A stretch of 64,000 bases of DNA from an uncultured Eubacteriales bacterium (GTDB taxonomy: Bacteria > Bacillota > Clostridia > Oscillospirales > Oscillospiraceae): assembly GCA_949525845.1 (NCBI GenBank), contig CATEPI010000006.1, positions 33,917-97,916 on the forward strand, in the 5' to 3' direction. Of this stretch, positions 33,647-52,265 are shown piece after piece (the stretch's first letter is position 1; every line of letters starts with the position of its first letter). Position numbers and translations under genes: made by a program. A model generated the notes under the pieces. That model was given only the letters and a program-made list of their open reading frames with translations. It made no database searches and had not been told where the DNA came from.

Positions 33647-33874
33647 TCACAAAGCCTTGACAGGGAACAGTACCTCACAGCGGGGTTTTAGAGAGAGGAT
33701 GGCCGGTGCAAATCCTCCGAAGCTGTGGCGGGAAGGCGCCCTGGAGCGCGGGGAGGAAATGCCCCGCCGGTCCCCGCCGTTACCGGGTTAGAGTGTCCCC
33801 CCAGGGGAAATTCAGGTGGAACCACGGACAGTTTTTGTTCGCCCTGAGCCGAAAGGCTCGGGGCGTTTTTGTTT
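33647..33874 (+). promoter_or_regulatory. Glycine T-box riboswitch
   Basis: Promoter TTGACA-17-TACAAT (33612-33640); AGAGA box, GGTGCAA, specifier GAA-GGC (33735-33737, Gly); T-box AGGTGGAACCACG (33813-33825); terminator 33840-33874. Confidence 0.88.
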
Positions 33875-37106: not shown

Positions 37107-37217
37107 GAATGTCTTCAAGGCAGGGTGAAATTCCCGATCGGCGGTAAAGTCCGCGAGCACACAGGTGCTGATTTGGTGAAAGTCCAAAACCGACAGTACA
37201 GTCTGGATTAAAGAAGG
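37107..37217 (+). promoter_or_regulatory. FMN riboswitch (RFN element)
   Basis: tcttcaaggcagggtgaaattcccgatcggcggtaaagtccgcgagc...gctgatttggtgaaagtccaaaaccgacagtacagtctggat..gaag; promoter TTGACA-17-TATAAT (37055-37083); terminator before the RBS. Confidence 0.92.
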
Positions 37218-37365
37218 TGTATTGAATTTGTCAGAACTGTTCTGACAGCATACACGTTTCCTGTCCGGCCAAGAAATGCTTTGTTGACATGTTCAATATA
37301 CCTCTTAATTACACCGAAAGGCATTGCGTTGCTTTTAGGTGTTAATTTTTTTGGAGGTAATTGAA

Positions 37366-48949: not shown

Positions 48950-49264
48950 TTGGAAAAGGACAAAATTCTGGAAAAAAGCCGTATGGAAAACAAAAATCAG
49001 GACGAGATGGAGCGGACCATTACCATCGAGGGGGAGTCCTTCAGCCTGGCTTTTACATTAATGGCGGGGCTGGCTATTGTAGTCTTTAATCACTTCCACA
49101 ATCTGTCTTCCGACAGTGTCATGATTATGTTCTGGACCTCCTGCGTCAGCAACCGCCTGTACCGCCTTACGAAGCGGAGAAGCACCTCCGACCTGATTAC
49201 CATGATAATTTCCCTTGTCATTCTGGTGTTTTATGTGGTAAAATACTTCTCACAGGGATGGTGA
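48950..49264 (+). CDS. DUF6442-like small membrane protein
   Basis: MEKDKILEKSRMENKNQDEME N-terminus, three TM helices; upstream of an XRE gene. Confidence 0.7.
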   Translation: MEKDKILEKSRMENKNQDEMERTITIEGESFSLAFTLMAGLAIVVFNHFHNLSSDSVMIMFWTSCVSNRLYRLTKRRSTSDLITMIISLVILVFYVVKYFSQGW

Positions 49265-49268
49265 GGGC

Positions 49269-49478
49269 ATGGACGACCAGTTGGTCCTGAAAAATCGGTT
49301 AAAGGTGGCCCGGGCGGAGCGGTCCCTGTCCCAGGGGGAGCTGGCCAGGCTGGTTGGCGTCTCCCGCCAGACCATCAGCTCCATCGAAACGGGCCAGTTC
49401 AACCCCACCGCCAAGCTGGCCCTGGTGCTGTGCGTCGCCCTGGATAAGAAGTTTGAGGAATTATTCTATTTCGACTGA
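49269..49478 (+). CDS. XRE-family HTH regulator
   Basis: LKNRLKVARAERSLSQGELARLVGVSRQTISSIETGQFNP. Confidence 0.92.
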   Translation: MDDQLVLKNRLKVARAERSLSQGELARLVGVSRQTISSIETGQFNPTAKLALVLCVALDKKFEELFYFD

Positions 49479-49856: not shown

Positions 49857-50240
49857 TTACTCGTCCTCTTTGGGCTCCTCAATTTTGGCGTCGGGGGCGT
49901 TCTTGCCCACGGAGGCGATGCCGTTGAGACAGCTGTCCTTCCGTTTGTAGCCCTCGCTCTTGCCAATGTTCTCACCGTTCTTGGCCTTCAGGCGGAAACG
50001 GAACTCACCGGCCTTGTCCTTGTAGACCTCAAACTTGGGGTGGGTCAGCTTCTCAAAGCCCTCCACCGTCTGGTCCTCCACGTGGGCCAGGGCGTTCTTC
50101 TGCACCGAGGCGATGCCCCCCTGGCAGCCGGACATGCTGGTGTAGCTCTCGGAGGCGGTGAGGATTACCTCGCCGTTGCCCGCCTTCAGGTTAAAGGTAA
50201 ATTCGCCGCCTTTGGTCTTGGTGATCACAAATTTTCCCAT
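49857..50240 (-). CDS. yegP: YegP (DUF1508) family protein
   Basis: Two repeats of F.F.LKA.NGE.I..SE.Y......GI.SV.KNA. Confidence 0.92.
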   Translation of the reverse strand: MGKFVITKTKGGEFTFNLKAGNGEVILTASESYTSMSGCQGGIASVQKNALAHVEDQTVEGFEKLTHPKFEVYKDKAGEFRFRLKAKNGENIGKSEGYKRKDSCLNGIASVGKNAPDAKIEEPKEDE

Positions 50241-50290: not shown

Positions 50291-50728
50291 CTATTTAAAT
50301 TTCTGGCTCTCCGCCACCGCCAGCTGGTCGCAGCGGTTGTTGAACTCGTTTTCAGCGTGGCCCTTCACCCAGTGGAGGTTTACCGTGTGCTTTTCGCACA
50401 GGTCCAGCAGACGGCCCCACAGGTCGGGGTTGAGGGCGGGCTTTTTGTCCGACTTCACCCATCCCCGGGCCCGCCAGCCCTTGGCCCAGCCCTTGCCCAG
50501 GCCGTCGATGACATATTTGCTGTCAGAGTACAGCTCAACAGTGCAGGGCTCTTTCAGCGCCTCCAGGGCAGCAATCACCCCGGTGAGCTCCATCCGGTTG
50601 TTGGTGGTCTGGGCCTCGCCCCCGGACAGCTCCTTTTTGTGTTCGCCGTACATCAGGATGGCCCCCCAGCCTCCGGGTCCGGGATTGCCGGAGCAGGCTC
50701 CGTCGGTGTAGATGGTGACAATTTTCAT
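50291..50728 (-). CDS. rnhA: Ribonuclease HI
   Basis: [43 protein letters not shown]. Confidence 0.96.
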
Positions 50729-50744
50729 AAATTCCCCAAACCCT

Positions 50745-50914
50745 CCCGCGCAAAATCGACGTCCGGTAATAAAGGTAAGCGTCCTGAAGACATAAACGTA
50801 CCGGTGTAATGATAACGGACCTGATAAAAAGCTGGGATTCGAACCCAAGCAAGGTCCCATTGCCGCCATAAAGTCGCCTGATGGCTCCGGCGCGGAGCTG
50901 ACGTCCGCTTTTTA
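50745..50914 (-). ncRNA. Candidate tRNA-like structured RNA between the DIP1984 gene and rnhA
   Basis: TAAAAAG (50914-50908) pairs with CTTTTTA (50831-50825) directly after the T-arm TTGGG-TTCGAAT-CCCAG; three internal hairpins; 3' tail with a CCGGTA/TACCGG stem. Confidence 0.6.
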
Positions 50915-50928
50915 CGCAACCAAAGATT

Positions 50929-51384
50929 TTACATCAGCTCGGTGGTCCAGTTCTTCTCCTGGATGGTTTCCTCCAGCTCCCGCAGGTCCTTGGACAGGCT
51001 GTCCACCTGCTTTTGCAGCTTCCGGACGTCCACGGTGCTCTTTACCTTAATCTCGCTGACAGAGTGGCGGCGGACTAGGGCGCTGGCGCTGTTCAGGAAC
51101 CCGCGCAGGATGGACAATTTGCCCTTGAGACAGTCCCGCTTGGCCAACAGGTCGGACAGGGTGGTCCCGTCCCCCGCCCGGGTGGAATTATTGGTGCGGT
51201 TGATGGCGGAGATCAGCTCCTCCAGCCGGGCATAGTCCGCGTCCAGCTCTTTCAGCAGCTCCATGGGGTCCTCGGCGGGCCGTTCCCCCTCCTGAACCTG
51301 GGCATTGTTGTCCAGCCGGTCCTCCAGCTGGCGGATGCGGGTCTGGAGCTCAGACCGCTGGGACAGGGCGTTGGCCAATTTCAT
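50929..51384 (-). CDS. DIP1984-family coiled-coil protein (often misnamed septicolysin)
   Basis: MKLANAL..RSELQTRI.QL..RL..NAQVQEGE.PAEDP..LL, INRTN, SEIK, IQEKNWTTEL. Confidence 0.88.
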   Translation of the reverse strand: MKLANALSQRSELQTRIRQLEDRLDNNAQVQEGERPAEDPMELLKELDADYARLEELISAINRTNNSTRAGDGTTLSDLLAKRDCLKGKLSILRGFLNSASALVRRHSVSEIKVKSTVDVRKLQKQVDSLSKDLRELEETIQEKNWTTELM

Positions 51385-51418: not shown

Positions 51419-51793
51419 TCAAGGAAATCTTTTAATCAGAGACATGATTCCTTTTTGCAGAAGTGTCAATAGCCAAAGGAATAGTCCAACACCGGATGCC
51501 ACAGCTATTGCTCCCACTCGCTGTTGTTTCCAGGCAAATCCATGGTACGTCATATTACAAACATCCCAGTACCGCTTATATATTTCCTCAAACCGTTCCA
51601 TGTCCTCTTTATTTGCTTTTTGGCTTATCATCAAAGTACTTAAATTCTGATACTCCTTTTCCACCTGTACCTGGTATGACCTCATAGCCAACCAGATGCC
51701 CCCAAATATTAGGAACACAACCAGTAATAACATACCGACCTTCCTAAATGTCAGCGGTCCAGCCAGGCTCAAGCGTATTTTATCAGAGCCCAT
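51419..51793 (-). CDS. Hypothetical membrane protein (low GC)
   Basis: Two TM helices, 124 aa. Confidence 0.6.
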   Translation of the reverse strand: MGSDKIRLSLAGPLTFRKVGMLLLVVFLIFGGIWLAMRSYQVQVEKEYQNLSTLMISQKANKEDMERFEEIYKRYWDVCNMTYHGFAWKQQRVGAIAVASGVGLFLWLLTLLQKGIMSLIKRFP

Positions 51794-52265
51794 TCAAAAT
51801 CTCCTGCCGCTTCTCCCAATACTCCTTTTCGTCCATCATCCCGGCGGCCCTCAGGCTCTCCAGCAGGGCCAGCTGGCGCTGGACCTCCGGGGCGAGCCCT
51901 CTGTCCCGGGGGCGGGCCCTGACATACCGCTTTATAAAGGCCTGATAGACGTCCAGTGCGGTAAATATGCCGGCCAAGAGGGTCCATATGACTCCGAAAG
52001 GGGCAGTGGCGGGAACGATCACAGCCAGCCCAAACAGGACAAAAACTCCGCCCCACACTGCGCCCACCACCCCCTGCGTCCTGCTGGGAAGATGGGCGTC
52101 GTTTCCCCCGGCCCGCTTCCGCAGCCAGCTCATGGTCCACTCATAGACCTTATTGAGGGCGGCGAATTCCAGACACAGTCCGATCAGGGACAGCACCACA
52201 TACAGCATCACATCTGTATTGCCGCCGGGGTCAACCATGGACTCCCACATTGGCACAAAATACAT
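51783..52265 (-). CDS. Membrane protein with a C-terminal SHOCT domain
   Basis: LESLRAAGMMDEKEYWEKRQEIL; three TM helices; exact start uncertain. Confidence 0.7.
   Translation of the reverse strand: MYFVPMWESMVDPGGNTDVMLYVVLSLIGLCLEFAALNKVYEWTMSWLRKRAGGNDAHLPSRTQGVVGAVWGGVFVLFGLAVIVPATAPFGVIWTLLAGIFTALDVYQAFIKRYVRARPRDRGLAPEVQRQLALLESLRAAGMMDEKEYWEKRQEILNGL

Follow-up and report, generated by a model that had tools for sequence, protein, structure and literature searches.

In at least four bacterial phyla, almost all DIP1984/DUF6847 genes examined are directly followed by a folded, abundant RNA. This points to a protein-RNA partnership not described before rather than to a tRNA-like remnant. 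In the window (the whole 64-kb stretch of DNA analyzed here), the 200-nt gap between the DIP1984 gene and rnhA encodes a discrete RNA of ~190 nt on the minus strand, at about 50924-50732. This RNA is unannotated in all records examined and is probably a member of an undescribed ~190-nt structured RNA family that forms an obligate two-gene module with DIP1984/DUF6847. The original prediction had proposed a 91-nt tRNA mimic at this site, with a fallback length of ~170 nt that comes nearer to the RNA described here. Recomputing the coordinates returned every sequence element it had listed in its place on the minus strand, and its broader idea of a structured RNA coupled to DIP1984 held across phyla in both directions of testing.

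The DIP1984 Locus

The locus consists of three features, two of which belong to the module:

50929 to 51384, minus strand: DIP1984/DUF6847 gene, 151 aa, four helices, the putative protein partner of the RNA
50732 to 50924, minus strand: whole RNA, ~190 nt, delimited by a covariance model match (50730-50927) and RNA-seq contigs
50291 to 50728, minus strand: rnhA (RNase HI; NCBIfam PRK00203, 2.4e-63), a neighbor outside the module

Assignment of the protein to the DIP1984 family, as originally predicted, is confirmed by Pfam PF20935 (1.5e-52, 177.8 bits against a cut-off of 27) and NCBIfam NF038048 (2.4e-53, 180.3 bits against a cut-off of 70). It matches PDB entry 3kdq by sequence (E=3e-28), and its structural model (pLDDT 94.9) matches the same entry with a TM of 0.96. 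A Foldseek search against the PDB returned no fold relative other than 3kdq, and no RNA-binding relative of the fold is known. DIP1984 proteins are near neutral, with a mean pI of 6.1. At 50% identity, 2005 representative clusters match the family with an E of 0.001 or better; to our knowledge, it is a large orphan family without a known function. A DIP1984 crystal structure has existed since 2009, and the gene carried by Acinetobacter plasmids still goes under the label "septicolysin" and has been discussed as a virulence factor. No work on function or on an RNA turned up in literature searches for DUF6847, DIP1984, 3KDQ, PF20935, and septicolysin, and searches of PADLOC and PHROGs with DIP1984 returned nothing significant.

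The link to rnhA, for which the original prediction allowed a functional or an incidental reading, is incidental. An rnhA-type ORF cluster (145 aa, equated with rnhA by length and synteny) lies downstream in 12 of the 57 loci examined, all 12 within the close-relative range L011-L064. In ASF500, a RelB/YafQ pair is inserted between the DIP1984-RNA unit and rnhA. Neighbor analysis of the loci found no third conserved partner gene, and the neighboring genes are heterogeneous.

Coupling of the RNA to DIP1984

Covariance model R1 was built from 30 distant sequences, with the clade of the window left out. In the 64-kb window it has a single significant match, at 50730-50927 on the minus strand (61.2 bits, E=6e-18), and in 521 kb of sequence it has 85 matches, each on the DIP1984 strand just 3′ of the gene. 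Among 80 genome loci, located by a DIP1984 search with a nine-sequence alignment, the model finds the RNA after the stop codon in 78, and the two misses have less than 290 nt after the gene. The median gap between the stop codon and the model start is 5 nt. At some loci (L051, L092, and L024), a hairpin separates the RNA from the gene or the spacing is 500-700 nt.

The reverse search, with an RNA-only pattern in metagenomes, yielded 32 RNAs confirmed by the covariance model, and DIP1984 lies upstream in all 29 that have upstream DNA. Eight chance matches to the pattern had neither model support nor a DIP1984 gene.

RNA-DIP1984 loci occur in Bacillota, Actinomycetota, Pseudomonadota, and Cyanobacteriota, and MAGs labelled as Bacteroidales or Paludibacteraceae give weak matches. 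The pair is found on both chromosomes and plasmids, and its other neighbors are unrelated; terminators follow the RNA at many loci. Matches begin 10-16 nt past the stop codon in Mycobacterium branderi (59.5 bits), Paracoccus (47.4 bits), and Streptomyces (40.5 bits), and another follows DIP1984 in Picosynechococcus (44.9 bits); the matches in these four genera sit on plasmids.

Fold of the RNA

Comparison among relatives shows a fold made of a closing stem (P1, an internal loop N-G-Y-G, and P2), helix S2, pseudoknot PK2, a peripheral T-loop hairpin, GYA repeats, an invariant ACC, and a G-rich 3′ tail. In 5′ to 3′ order, its elements in the window are:

50918 to 50924, minus strand: 5′ single-stranded tail UUUGGUU (GGUA in most relatives), GG(U) conserved in alignments A4 and A5; RNA contigs begin here
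50910 to 50917, minus strand: P1 5′ strand GCGUAAAA, partner 50755-50748
50906 to 50909, minus strand: asymmetric internal loop AGCG between P1 and P2 (consensus N-G-Y-G), both G invariant in 74 sequences (G20 and G22 of A4)
50900 to 50905, minus strand: P2 5′ strand GACGUC, in the first "direct repeat" copy, partner 50763-50758
50884 to 50898, minus strand: hairpin A, GCUCC-GCGCC-GGAGC, loop pairs with GGCG at 50878-50875 (S2)
50875 to 50878, minus strand: S2 3′ strand GGCG, completing the loop-to-downstream helix S2
50849 to 50863, minus strand: hairpin C, GCAA-UGGGACC-UUGC, loop is the PK2 5′ strand
50832 to 50848, minus strand: T-loop hairpin UUGGG-UUCGAAU-CCCAG, 94% paired in 74 relatives
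50817 to 50821, minus strand: PK2 3′ strand GGUCC, pairs with GGACC in the hairpin C loop
50797 to 50816, minus strand: GYA...ACA...GYA region GUUAUCAUUACACCGGUA, two G-Y-A motifs flanking an invariant ACA
50781 to 50791, minus strand: small variable hairpin GUC-UUCAG-GAC, only in close relatives of the window, an insertion relative to most members (A4)
50765 to 50769, minus strand: UUACC with the invariant ACC, directly 5′ of the P2 3′ strand, C162 and C163 invariant in 74 sequences
50758 to 50763, minus strand: P2 3′ strand GACGUC, in the second "direct repeat" copy, partner of 50900-50905
50748 to 50755, minus strand: P1 3′ strand UUUUGCGC, partner of 50910-50917
50732 to 50747, minus strand: G-rich single-stranded 3′ tail GGGAGGGUUUGGGGAA (consensus GGGNGGGNNNGGGGA), G invariant in 74 sequences

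MAFFT alignments mis-register P1 and hairpin C between two sequence types, so the model was built from one sequence type and the remainder was aligned by Infernal. Pair counts for the modeled helices come from the alignment fitted to the covariance model. In the modeled helices, 96.3% of cells are paired, versus 67.5% in shuffles and 36-47% in slid controls, and 21 of the 22 modeled pairs have compensatory changes. This covariation is reproduced on an independent metagenome set, and the MAFFT alignment backs P2 and the T hairpin equally well. The strand of the RNA is fixed by G-U pairs. Thermodynamic folding is uninformative alone, with z = -1.1 for a 95-nt segment and z = +0.55 for the 200-nt region against shuffles. 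The original prediction had named a covariance model downstream of DIP1984 homologs as its check; covariation among relatives supports P1, P2, S2, PK2, and the T hairpin.

P1, recognized first in ASF500 (GCGUGAAA/UUUCACGC) and L004 (GCGCGAAA/UUUCGCGC), is 96% paired with compensatory changes in nine of nine pairs. The four modeled pairs of P2 are 99.4% paired and all compensatory; in the MAFFT alignment, pairing over all six pairs is 93%. The 8-nt direct repeat CGGACGUC, originally read as two copies 142 bp apart, is real, and its palindromic core GACGUC provides both strands of this helix. A kink-turn reading of the internal loop between P1 and P2 was rejected because the "GA" of the 3′ strand is not conserved. 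Helix S2 is 93% paired, has compensatory changes in six of six pairs, and is upheld on the independent metagenome set.

The two arms GCUCC/GGAGC and GCAA/UUGC of the original prediction persist as the local hairpins A and C. Hairpin A takes the form UCUC...GAGA in most relatives. The stem of hairpin C covaries by eye (AACGAA/UUCGUU, UAUAUGC/GCAUAUA, and GGUAUG/CAUACC), and the mis-registering in the MAFFT alignment lowers its pairing there to 66.5%. An AGGUCC/GGACCU pairing had been suspected and is borne out as PK2: 78 of 82 members carry their own partner, compared with a mean of 47 and a maximum of 58 of 82 in swapped controls, and all 48 members with a non-consensus tetramer have the matching partner. 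Two other predicted stems, CCGGUA/UACCGG (61% paired) and CCAU/AUGG (53% paired), did not hold up among relatives.

The T-arm-like hairpin was correctly predicted and is conserved, with compensatory changes in its outer pairs. It has the 5-bp stem and 7-nt loop (U-U-C-R-A-N-Y, closed by G-C) of a tRNA T-arm, and its own consensus, U-(U/C)-C-R-A-N-Y closed by G-C, is kept in ~70 of 83 distinct members; the hairpin is dispensable, being absent in ~11. Such a T-loop is a widespread tertiary-contact module found in RNase P, rRNA, and T-box stem I. A terminator scan flags the T hairpin and a U-run; that the T-loop and the 90 nt downstream are conserved speaks against a plain terminator.

Within the GYA region, A121, A123, G127, and A129 of A4 are invariant, and the Y bases of both GYA motifs change together. 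The weak matches in Acinetobacter baumannii and Enterococcus faecium keep P1, GGCG, P2, GUUACA, and ACUACC, and the UUACC/ACC element is retained even there. The anchor of the G-rich tail is present in 74 of 80 loci and missing in Acinetobacter. As some lineages lack this tail or the T hairpin, neither can be essential to a universal mechanism. A by-eye reading of A4 found no covariation for pairing of the 5′ tail GGUA with UACC at the invariant ACC, and this pairing is sterically doubtful.

Expression of the RNA

Metatranscriptomes show a discrete, abundant RNA, present at far higher levels than the coding part of its transcript. In mouse-gut run X24, depth is 107 over the RNA (50741-50924) versus 3.9 over the DIP1984 coding region and 0 over rnhA, a ratio of ~28 between RNA and coding region; these values are assembler contig depths, which carry neither strand nor end information. 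A second contig covers 50741-50919 at depth 19, one fragment reaches 50732, and a sister-species copy of the RNA has a depth of 4300. Additional RNA-seq runs are strain mixtures and added little. The RNase P-type 5′ end predicted at 50914 does not coincide with the contig starts at 50924 and 50919; one adapter-flanked fragment, the sole such case, ends at 50913. A simple promoter scan found no promoter. Read by eye, a -10-like TGTAAAAT overlaps the DIP1984 stop codon.

The most serious alternative, although an unlikely one, is that the RNA is a cis-acting 3′-UTR element that stabilizes, terminates, or autoregulates the DIP1984 mRNA (an exonuclease block or a self-repression site, for instance), with the abundant fragment as a decay-resistant by-product. 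Strict cis linkage is what such an element predicts, the median 5-nt gap is too short to hold a separate promoter outside the coding region, a low-depth contig extends from the coding region into the RNA, and many loci have terminators behind it. Against this, the excess of RNA over coding region is large, some loci have the intervening hairpin or the wide spacing noted above, and the fold goes far beyond the needs of known 3′ stabilizers: over 190 nt it combines two long-range or pseudoknot helices with a T-loop and ~20 invariant unpaired bases, all conserved in at least four phyla. The 3′-UTR small RNAs CpxQ and SroC likewise follow a stop codon directly and accumulate above the parent mRNA. 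Known RNAs of this kind are short, Hfq-dependent, terminator-ended, and conserved within genera or families only. The DIP1984 RNA differs from CpxQ and SroC in having a complex fold that is conserved across phyla together with the gene.

A Toxin-Antitoxin-Like Reading

It is quite unlikely that the pair is a toxin-antitoxin-like or defense module in which the abundant RNA neutralizes the protein in a type III-like manner and so aids plasmid maintenance or phage defense. Like ToxIN, CptIN, and TenpIN, it is a self-contained two-part module of protein and RNA, set in varied contexts and common on plasmids, with RNA in large excess over the mRNA of the protein. The DIP1984 gene appears in 342 Acinetobacter plasmid records and on Enterococcus, Mycobacterium, and Streptomyces plasmids, homologs lie on only five viral contigs, and the unit adjoins RelB/YafQ in ASF500. 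Unlike those systems, the RNA has no tandem repeat units and lies 3′ rather than 5′ of the gene, and DIP1984 falls outside the endoribonuclease families: the protein is hydrophilic, lacks a nuclease-like fold and any ToxN, CptN, or TenpN domain, and has no significant PADLOC match. In Oscillospiraceae, moreover, the pair occupies a stable chromosomal site adjoining gyrA, and in this it resembles a core gene rather than a mobile one.

The tRNA-Like and Other Readings

The original reading is very improbable. It took 50914-50824 for a 91-nt tRNA-like RNA in which a 7-bp acceptor-like stem stacks on a T-arm, with a tail behind it and with RNase P/Z processing as for tmRNA or Y RNA. Its acceptor stem, UAAAAAG/CUUUUUA, is perfect in this strain and also forms in the minimum-free-energy fold calculated for the 95-nt segment, the T hairpin contains a genuine T-loop, and the adapter-flanked fragment ends within one nucleotide of the proposed 5′ end. 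Across 74 relatives, however, the stem is 56% paired, equal to slid controls, with mismatches in ASF500 and L004, and its 5′ strand is taken by the covarying P1. With the acceptor helix at background, the RNA is therefore not a tRNA mimic. The main RNA contigs, which span 50924-50741, and the absence of the T hairpin from some members also speak against this reading. A D-arm with GG, an anticodon arm, and a 3′ CCA or discriminator are absent from both the sequence and the family consensus.

Searches for known RNA classes agree. ARAGORN finds 0 genes in the 64-kb window, and Rfam gives the RNA no tRNA, tmRNA, or Y RNA match at E up to 10 in the window; in locus L077, a relaxed search produced only a chance-level tRNA-Sec match (13.7 bits, E=4.9). 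No curated Rfam 15 family matches the RNA at the gathering threshold in the window or in 20 related loci, and relaxed searches of the window and L077 stay at chance level. The earlier comparison with tmRNA and Y RNA is not supported. The RNA has no conserved ORF, as a tmRNA would, and the same search recovered the genuine L077 tmRNA at 166 bits. A bacterial Y RNA (YrlA) was rejected on its neighbors, which include DIP1984 and no TROVE domain. For 6S RNA there is no Rfam match either; the fold is multi-helix with pseudoknots, and the RNA is strictly linked to DIP1984.

Scarcely credible are an rnhA leader or riboswitch, a small protein gene, and a strain-specific tRNA or attachment-site remnant: the GGGGAA of the tail doubles as the rnhA Shine-Dalgarno in the clade of the window, but rnhA follows at a minority of loci, has no RNA depth here, and elsewhere gives way to other downstream genes or a terminator where a leader would keep a fixed place 5′ of one regulated gene class; a 64-aa ORF overlaps the region, but open frames do not exceed those of shuffles in length and keep no constant frame; and the T-arm looks in sequence like the 3′ half of a tRNA, but the RNA is conserved across phyla, always with DIP1984, and is thus neither strain-specific nor a remnant, contrary to the refuting case foreseen in the original prediction.

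Comparison with Known Protein-RNA Pairs

Dedicated gene pairs of a protein and a structured RNA include smpB-ssrA (tmRNA), rsr-yrlA (Ro60 and bacterial Y RNA), and OLE RNA with oapA/B/C. The DIP1984 RNA resembles these as a stable, structured, abundant RNA beside its partner gene and conserved with it, and its coupling, at a median distance of 5 nt between stop codon and RNA start, is tighter. Like tmRNA and YrlA, it holds a true T-loop hairpin; unlike them, it has no acceptor stem, tag ORF, or Ro-binding stem. It shares no sequence or model similarity (Rfam) with any of the three, its putative partner has a four-helix orphan fold rather than that of SmpB, Ro60/TROVE, or Oap, and its binding by DIP1984 is predicted indirectly, from the strict two-way gene linkage and the co-variation of residue 66 with the GYA motifs.

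In its complex pseudoknotted fold, many invariant unpaired bases, wide distribution that includes gut Clostridia, and high expression, the RNA is comparable to raiA, ROOL, GOLLD, and HEARO/omega RNA, large structured RNAs of bacteria that comparative genomics brought to light. Of these, HEARO/omega RNAs accompany IsrB/IscB nucleases, and ROOL and GOLLD have no associated protein. The DIP1984 RNA differs in its smaller size of ~190 nt, in having no Rfam 15 entry, and in its strict link to a single small protein family.

A Putative DIP1984 Ribonucleoprotein

Residue 66 of DIP1984, which adjoins an invariant INxTN motif, is N or Q where the GYA motifs have U and S or T where they have C, and 65 of 69 distinct proteins agree with this rule. 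The residue and the Y base change on the same tree branch five times, versus at most three for 73 other columns; this correlation was found post hoc, its N/Q-versus-rest classes were chosen after the data were seen, and relatedness was only roughly controlled. Because residue 66 tracks U or C in the repeated GYA motifs, direct binding of the RNA by DIP1984 is suggested. The near-neutral charge of the protein, and a fold for which no RNA-binding relative is known, count against it.

In the proposed mechanism, gene and RNA would be made as one unit, closed by a terminator in many lineages. The RNA may be released by a cut just past the stop codon or started at a promoter overlapping it, and would then outlive the mRNA. 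Oligomeric DIP1984 would bind the RNA sequence-specifically to form a dedicated ribonucleoprotein, in which residue 66 could read the Y base of each GYA repeat, and the free G-rich tail and T-loop may be presented to a target. The chances are about even that DIP1984/DUF6847 and its RNA constitute an ancient or widely transferred ribonucleoprotein, both of whose folds are new, with a homo-oligomer reading the GYA repeats and a cellular role not yet known for any ribonucleoprotein, such as acting on nucleic acids or ribosomes through the G-rich tail and T-loop. Such a particle would be common in gut Clostridia, and its gene lies on hundreds of Acinetobacter plasmid records.

An obligate folded RNA partner changes what should be tested for DIP1984/DUF6847, as the working entity is probably a complex of protein and RNA and not a lysin. 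With it, one more class of intricate structure joins the few widespread bacterial RNAs that lack an assigned function. The system offers practical handles, including a small partner with a solved structure and tractable hosts such as A. baumannii, E. faecium, Synechococcus-type cyanobacteria, Streptomyces, and mycobacteria. Contact between residue 66 and the Y base of GYA is a specific, falsifiable prediction for this protein family.

Distribution and coupling to DIP1984

DIP1984 (DUF6847) is an uncharacterised protein family whose gene, in the window, is followed by a member of a new structured RNA family (~190 nt, ~50924-50732, minus strand). The sequence of the gap that holds this RNA is kept in Firmicutes bacterium ASF500 and other relatives of the source organism, itself a mouse-gut relative of ASF500 in or near Oscillospiraceae.

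Genes around DIP1984 (window coordinates)
54794-52269, minus: gyrA, first in the minus-strand gene order
51384-50929, minus: DIP1984/DUF6847, after gyrA and two small membrane-protein ORFs
between DIP1984 and rnhA, minus: 200-nt gap, the RNA region
50728-50291, minus: rnhA, after the 200-nt gap
49857-50240, minus: tandem-DUF1508 protein, HVO_2922-like, downstream of rnhA
49269-49478: HTH_3 regulator, divergent pair with the DUF6442 membrane protein
48950-49264: DUF6442 membrane protein, divergent pair with the HTH_3 regulator

A DIP1984 alignment searched against a single genome of each species yields 80 loci (97-56% protein identity) from Oscillospiraceae, Lawsonibacter, Flintibacter, Oscillibacter, Acetatifactor, and Christensenella, as well as the gammaproteobacteria Succinimonas and Ruminobacter and some Bacteroidales-labelled MAGs. 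Nearly all carry a similar ~190-nt stretch after the DIP1984 stop codon, in two sequence types: A, found in the window's clade, and B, with GAUCUC...GAGAAUGA. R1, a covariance model (CM) trained on 30 type-B sequences only, finds a single significant site in the 64-kb window, full length at 50730-50927 (minus strand, 61.2 bits, E=6e-18). Run over 89 sources (521 kb), R1 produces 85 matches. Each lies on the same strand as DIP1984 and just downstream of it, and together they account for 78 of the 80 genome loci; at the two loci missed, <290 nt of sequence follow the gene. The model start lies a median of 5 nt beyond the stop codon.

Plasmid-borne DIP1984 is likewise followed directly by an R1 match in Mycobacterium branderi (59.5 bits), Paracoccus versutus (47.4), Picosynechococcus (44.9), and Streptomyces (40.5). 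Matches are weak in A. baumannii pAB-G7-1 and E. faecium pNB2354_1, where inspection by eye picks out helices P1 and P2, the GGCG loop, GUUACA, and ACUACC; an intrinsic terminator follows the E. faecium copy. The divergent Acinetobacter copy combines these elements with a 10-bp P1 and lacks the G-rich tail. DIP1984 lies next to znuD2 on 342 records of small Acinetobacter plasmids, annotated as 'septicolysin' in older entries, and the ~500 nt after it are unannotated (L097 1962-2458 in the pAB-G7-1 locus).

In the reverse direction, a pattern built solely from the RNA's 5' part retrieves 40 metagenome contigs, 32 of which hold the RNA by CM. DIP1984 is immediately upstream in 29/29 RNAs with enough upstream DNA, three are cut by the contig end, and the 8 chance matches lack both the RNA and DIP1984. 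These searches show strict two-way coupling of the RNA and DIP1984 across phyla and replicon types.

Structure of the RNA

The sequence alone is unremarkable; what supports the RNA is its comparison with relatives, together with expression data. A 95-nt segment has no folding advantage over shuffles (z = -1.1), and ARAGORN finds no tRNA or tmRNA within the 64-kb window. Rfam reports only an FMN riboswitch (37107-37222, plus strand, 111 bits) and a T-box leader (33648-33849, plus strand, 100 bits), both above the gathering score, ordinary, and unrelated to the RNA, and the gap shows no real match even with E relaxed to 10. Neither Rfam 15 nor the literature searched holds a family or paper describing it.

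Elements of the RNA (window coordinates)
50924-50918, minus: 5' tail
50917-50910 with 50755-50748, minus: helix P1, GCGUAAAA with UUUUGCGC
minus: internal loop N-G-Y-G, both G invariant
50905-50900 with 50763-50758, minus: helix P2, GACGUC with GACGUC
50898-50884, minus: hairpin A, whose loop pairs with GGCG (50878-50875) as helix S2
50863-50849, minus: hairpin C, with loop GGACC paired to GGUCC (50821-50817, beyond the T hairpin) as pseudoknot PK2
50848-50832, minus: T hairpin
50816-50797, minus: two GYA motifs flanking an invariant ACA
50767-50765, minus: invariant ACC
50747-50732, minus: 3' tail GGGAGGGUUUGGGGAA

Pairing across the four modelled helices reaches 96.3% in the CM alignment (83 distinct sequences), compared with 67.5% for column shuffles and 36-47% for slid partners. 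This alignment was itself fitted to the model; in an unfitted MAFFT alignment, P2 is 93% paired and the T hairpin 94%. Compensatory changes occur in 21 of 22 pairs of the CM alignment, and the metagenome set gives the same pairing picture. From its G-U pairs, the RNA is assigned to the same strand as DIP1984; it contains no conserved ORF and no tandem repeats. The GGACC/GGUCC pairing suspected in the original prediction is PK2: its partner is present in 78/82 members and matches in all 48 with a non-consensus tetramer, whereas a swapped control averages 47/82.

The motifs on which a tRNA-like RNA had been proposed all lie where they were placed. Across relatives, however, the acceptor-like stem pairs at background level (56%), and the CCGGUA/UACCGG stem is 61% paired. 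The T-arm-like hairpin is borne out by its pairing and keeps its T-loop signature in ~70/83 members, but it is a peripheral module, since ~11 lack it. The 8-nt 'direct repeat' exists as sequence and serves as the two strands of P2; its core is palindromic and pairs with itself.

Genomic context

gyrA lies upstream of DIP1984 at 28 loci, all among closer relatives, an ORF cluster taken as rnhA follows the RNA at 12 only, and type-B loci adjoin unrelated housekeeping genes. Because these neighbours are heterogeneous, the module has two parts, DIP1984 and the RNA, and its link to rnhA is incidental.

In relatives, the DUF1508 protein and the HTH_3/DUF6442 pair are syntenic with rnhA. A RelB/YafQ(ParE) toxin-antitoxin pair lies between the RNA and rnhA in ASF500 (L001 4759-5306) and in L003 and L007-L010, so the RNA-rnhA junction is unconstrained. 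Two small predicted membrane ORFs (51419-52265), one with a weak SHOCT match, separate gyrA from DIP1984; their PADLOC matches are weak only (RTasSLATT, E=0.003), and a DUF3829 protein replaces them in relatives. Upstream of DIP1984 lie a group II intron domain fragment in Succinimonas amylolytica (L069 1614-1680, 46 bits) and, directly adjacent in a goat-omasum Bacillota MAG, a complete tmRNA gene (L077 2070-2427, 166 bits), which could reflect chance or an island inserted at ssrA.

Expression

The RNA accumulates as a discrete species. In X24, a ribosomal-RNA-depleted mouse-gut metatranscriptome, its contig spans exactly 50741-50924 at depth 107.5, versus 3.9 for the DIP1984 coding region and 0 for rnhA, as assembler values for assembled contigs that carry no strand or end information. 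A second run gives a contig at 50741-50919 (depth 19), other runs being strain mixtures, and a further fragment extends to 50732.

Two more X24 contigs, one of 155 nt (depth 4300) and one of 62 nt (depth 274), match the window only over the RNA's last 30 nt (50741-50770) and differ beyond that point. They seem to represent the copy of a sister species; if so, the RNA would be among the most abundant transcripts of the sample. A -10-like TGTAAAAT overlaps the DIP1984 stop codon (50926-50933), ~7 nt before the first RNA-seq contig start. A simple promoter scan does not call it, and A/T-rich hexamers are read by eye at the same place in many relatives.

The DIP1984 protein and proposed mechanism

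DIP1984 is modelled as a near-neutral (mean pI 6.1) four-helix protein (pLDDT 94.9) with a single structural relative, 3kdq, which is C. diphtheriae DIP1984 and itself uncharacterised. PADLOC and PHROGs assign it no significant family, and 'septicolysin' occurs as a bare label in the literature found. Both GYA motifs vary in concert at their Y base, and residue 66, adjoining the invariant INxTN motif, is the protein column with the highest mutual information with their state: N/Q accompanies GUA in both motifs and S/T accompanies GCA in both (65/69 distinct proteins). On a neighbour-joining tree built without residue 66, 5 of 6-8 inferred changes fall on the same branch, versus at most 3 for 73 other columns; this analysis is exploratory and post hoc, with relatedness controlled roughly. 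The co-variation matches an oligomer reading repeated sites and hints at direct recognition.

The DIP1984 gene and the RNA are probably co-transcribed, with the RNA released by processing or made from an internal promoter. Oligomeric DIP1984 would bind it sequence-specifically, forming a dedicated RNP that acts on some target. A purely cis-acting 3'-UTR element is unlikely, and a toxin-antitoxin-like or defence module somewhat more so. A tRNA mimic, contradicted by the covariation data, is highly improbable. The smpB-ssrA, rsr-yrlA, and OLE-oap systems resemble the DIP1984-RNA pair in arrangement but share neither component, and every membership test for known systems that could be run was negative.

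In the window's clade, the conserved GGGGAA tail lies ~5 nt before the rnhA ATG (50726-50737) and so doubles as the rnhA Shine-Dalgarno sequence. If the tail folds or is bound, rnhA translation could change locally as a side effect.
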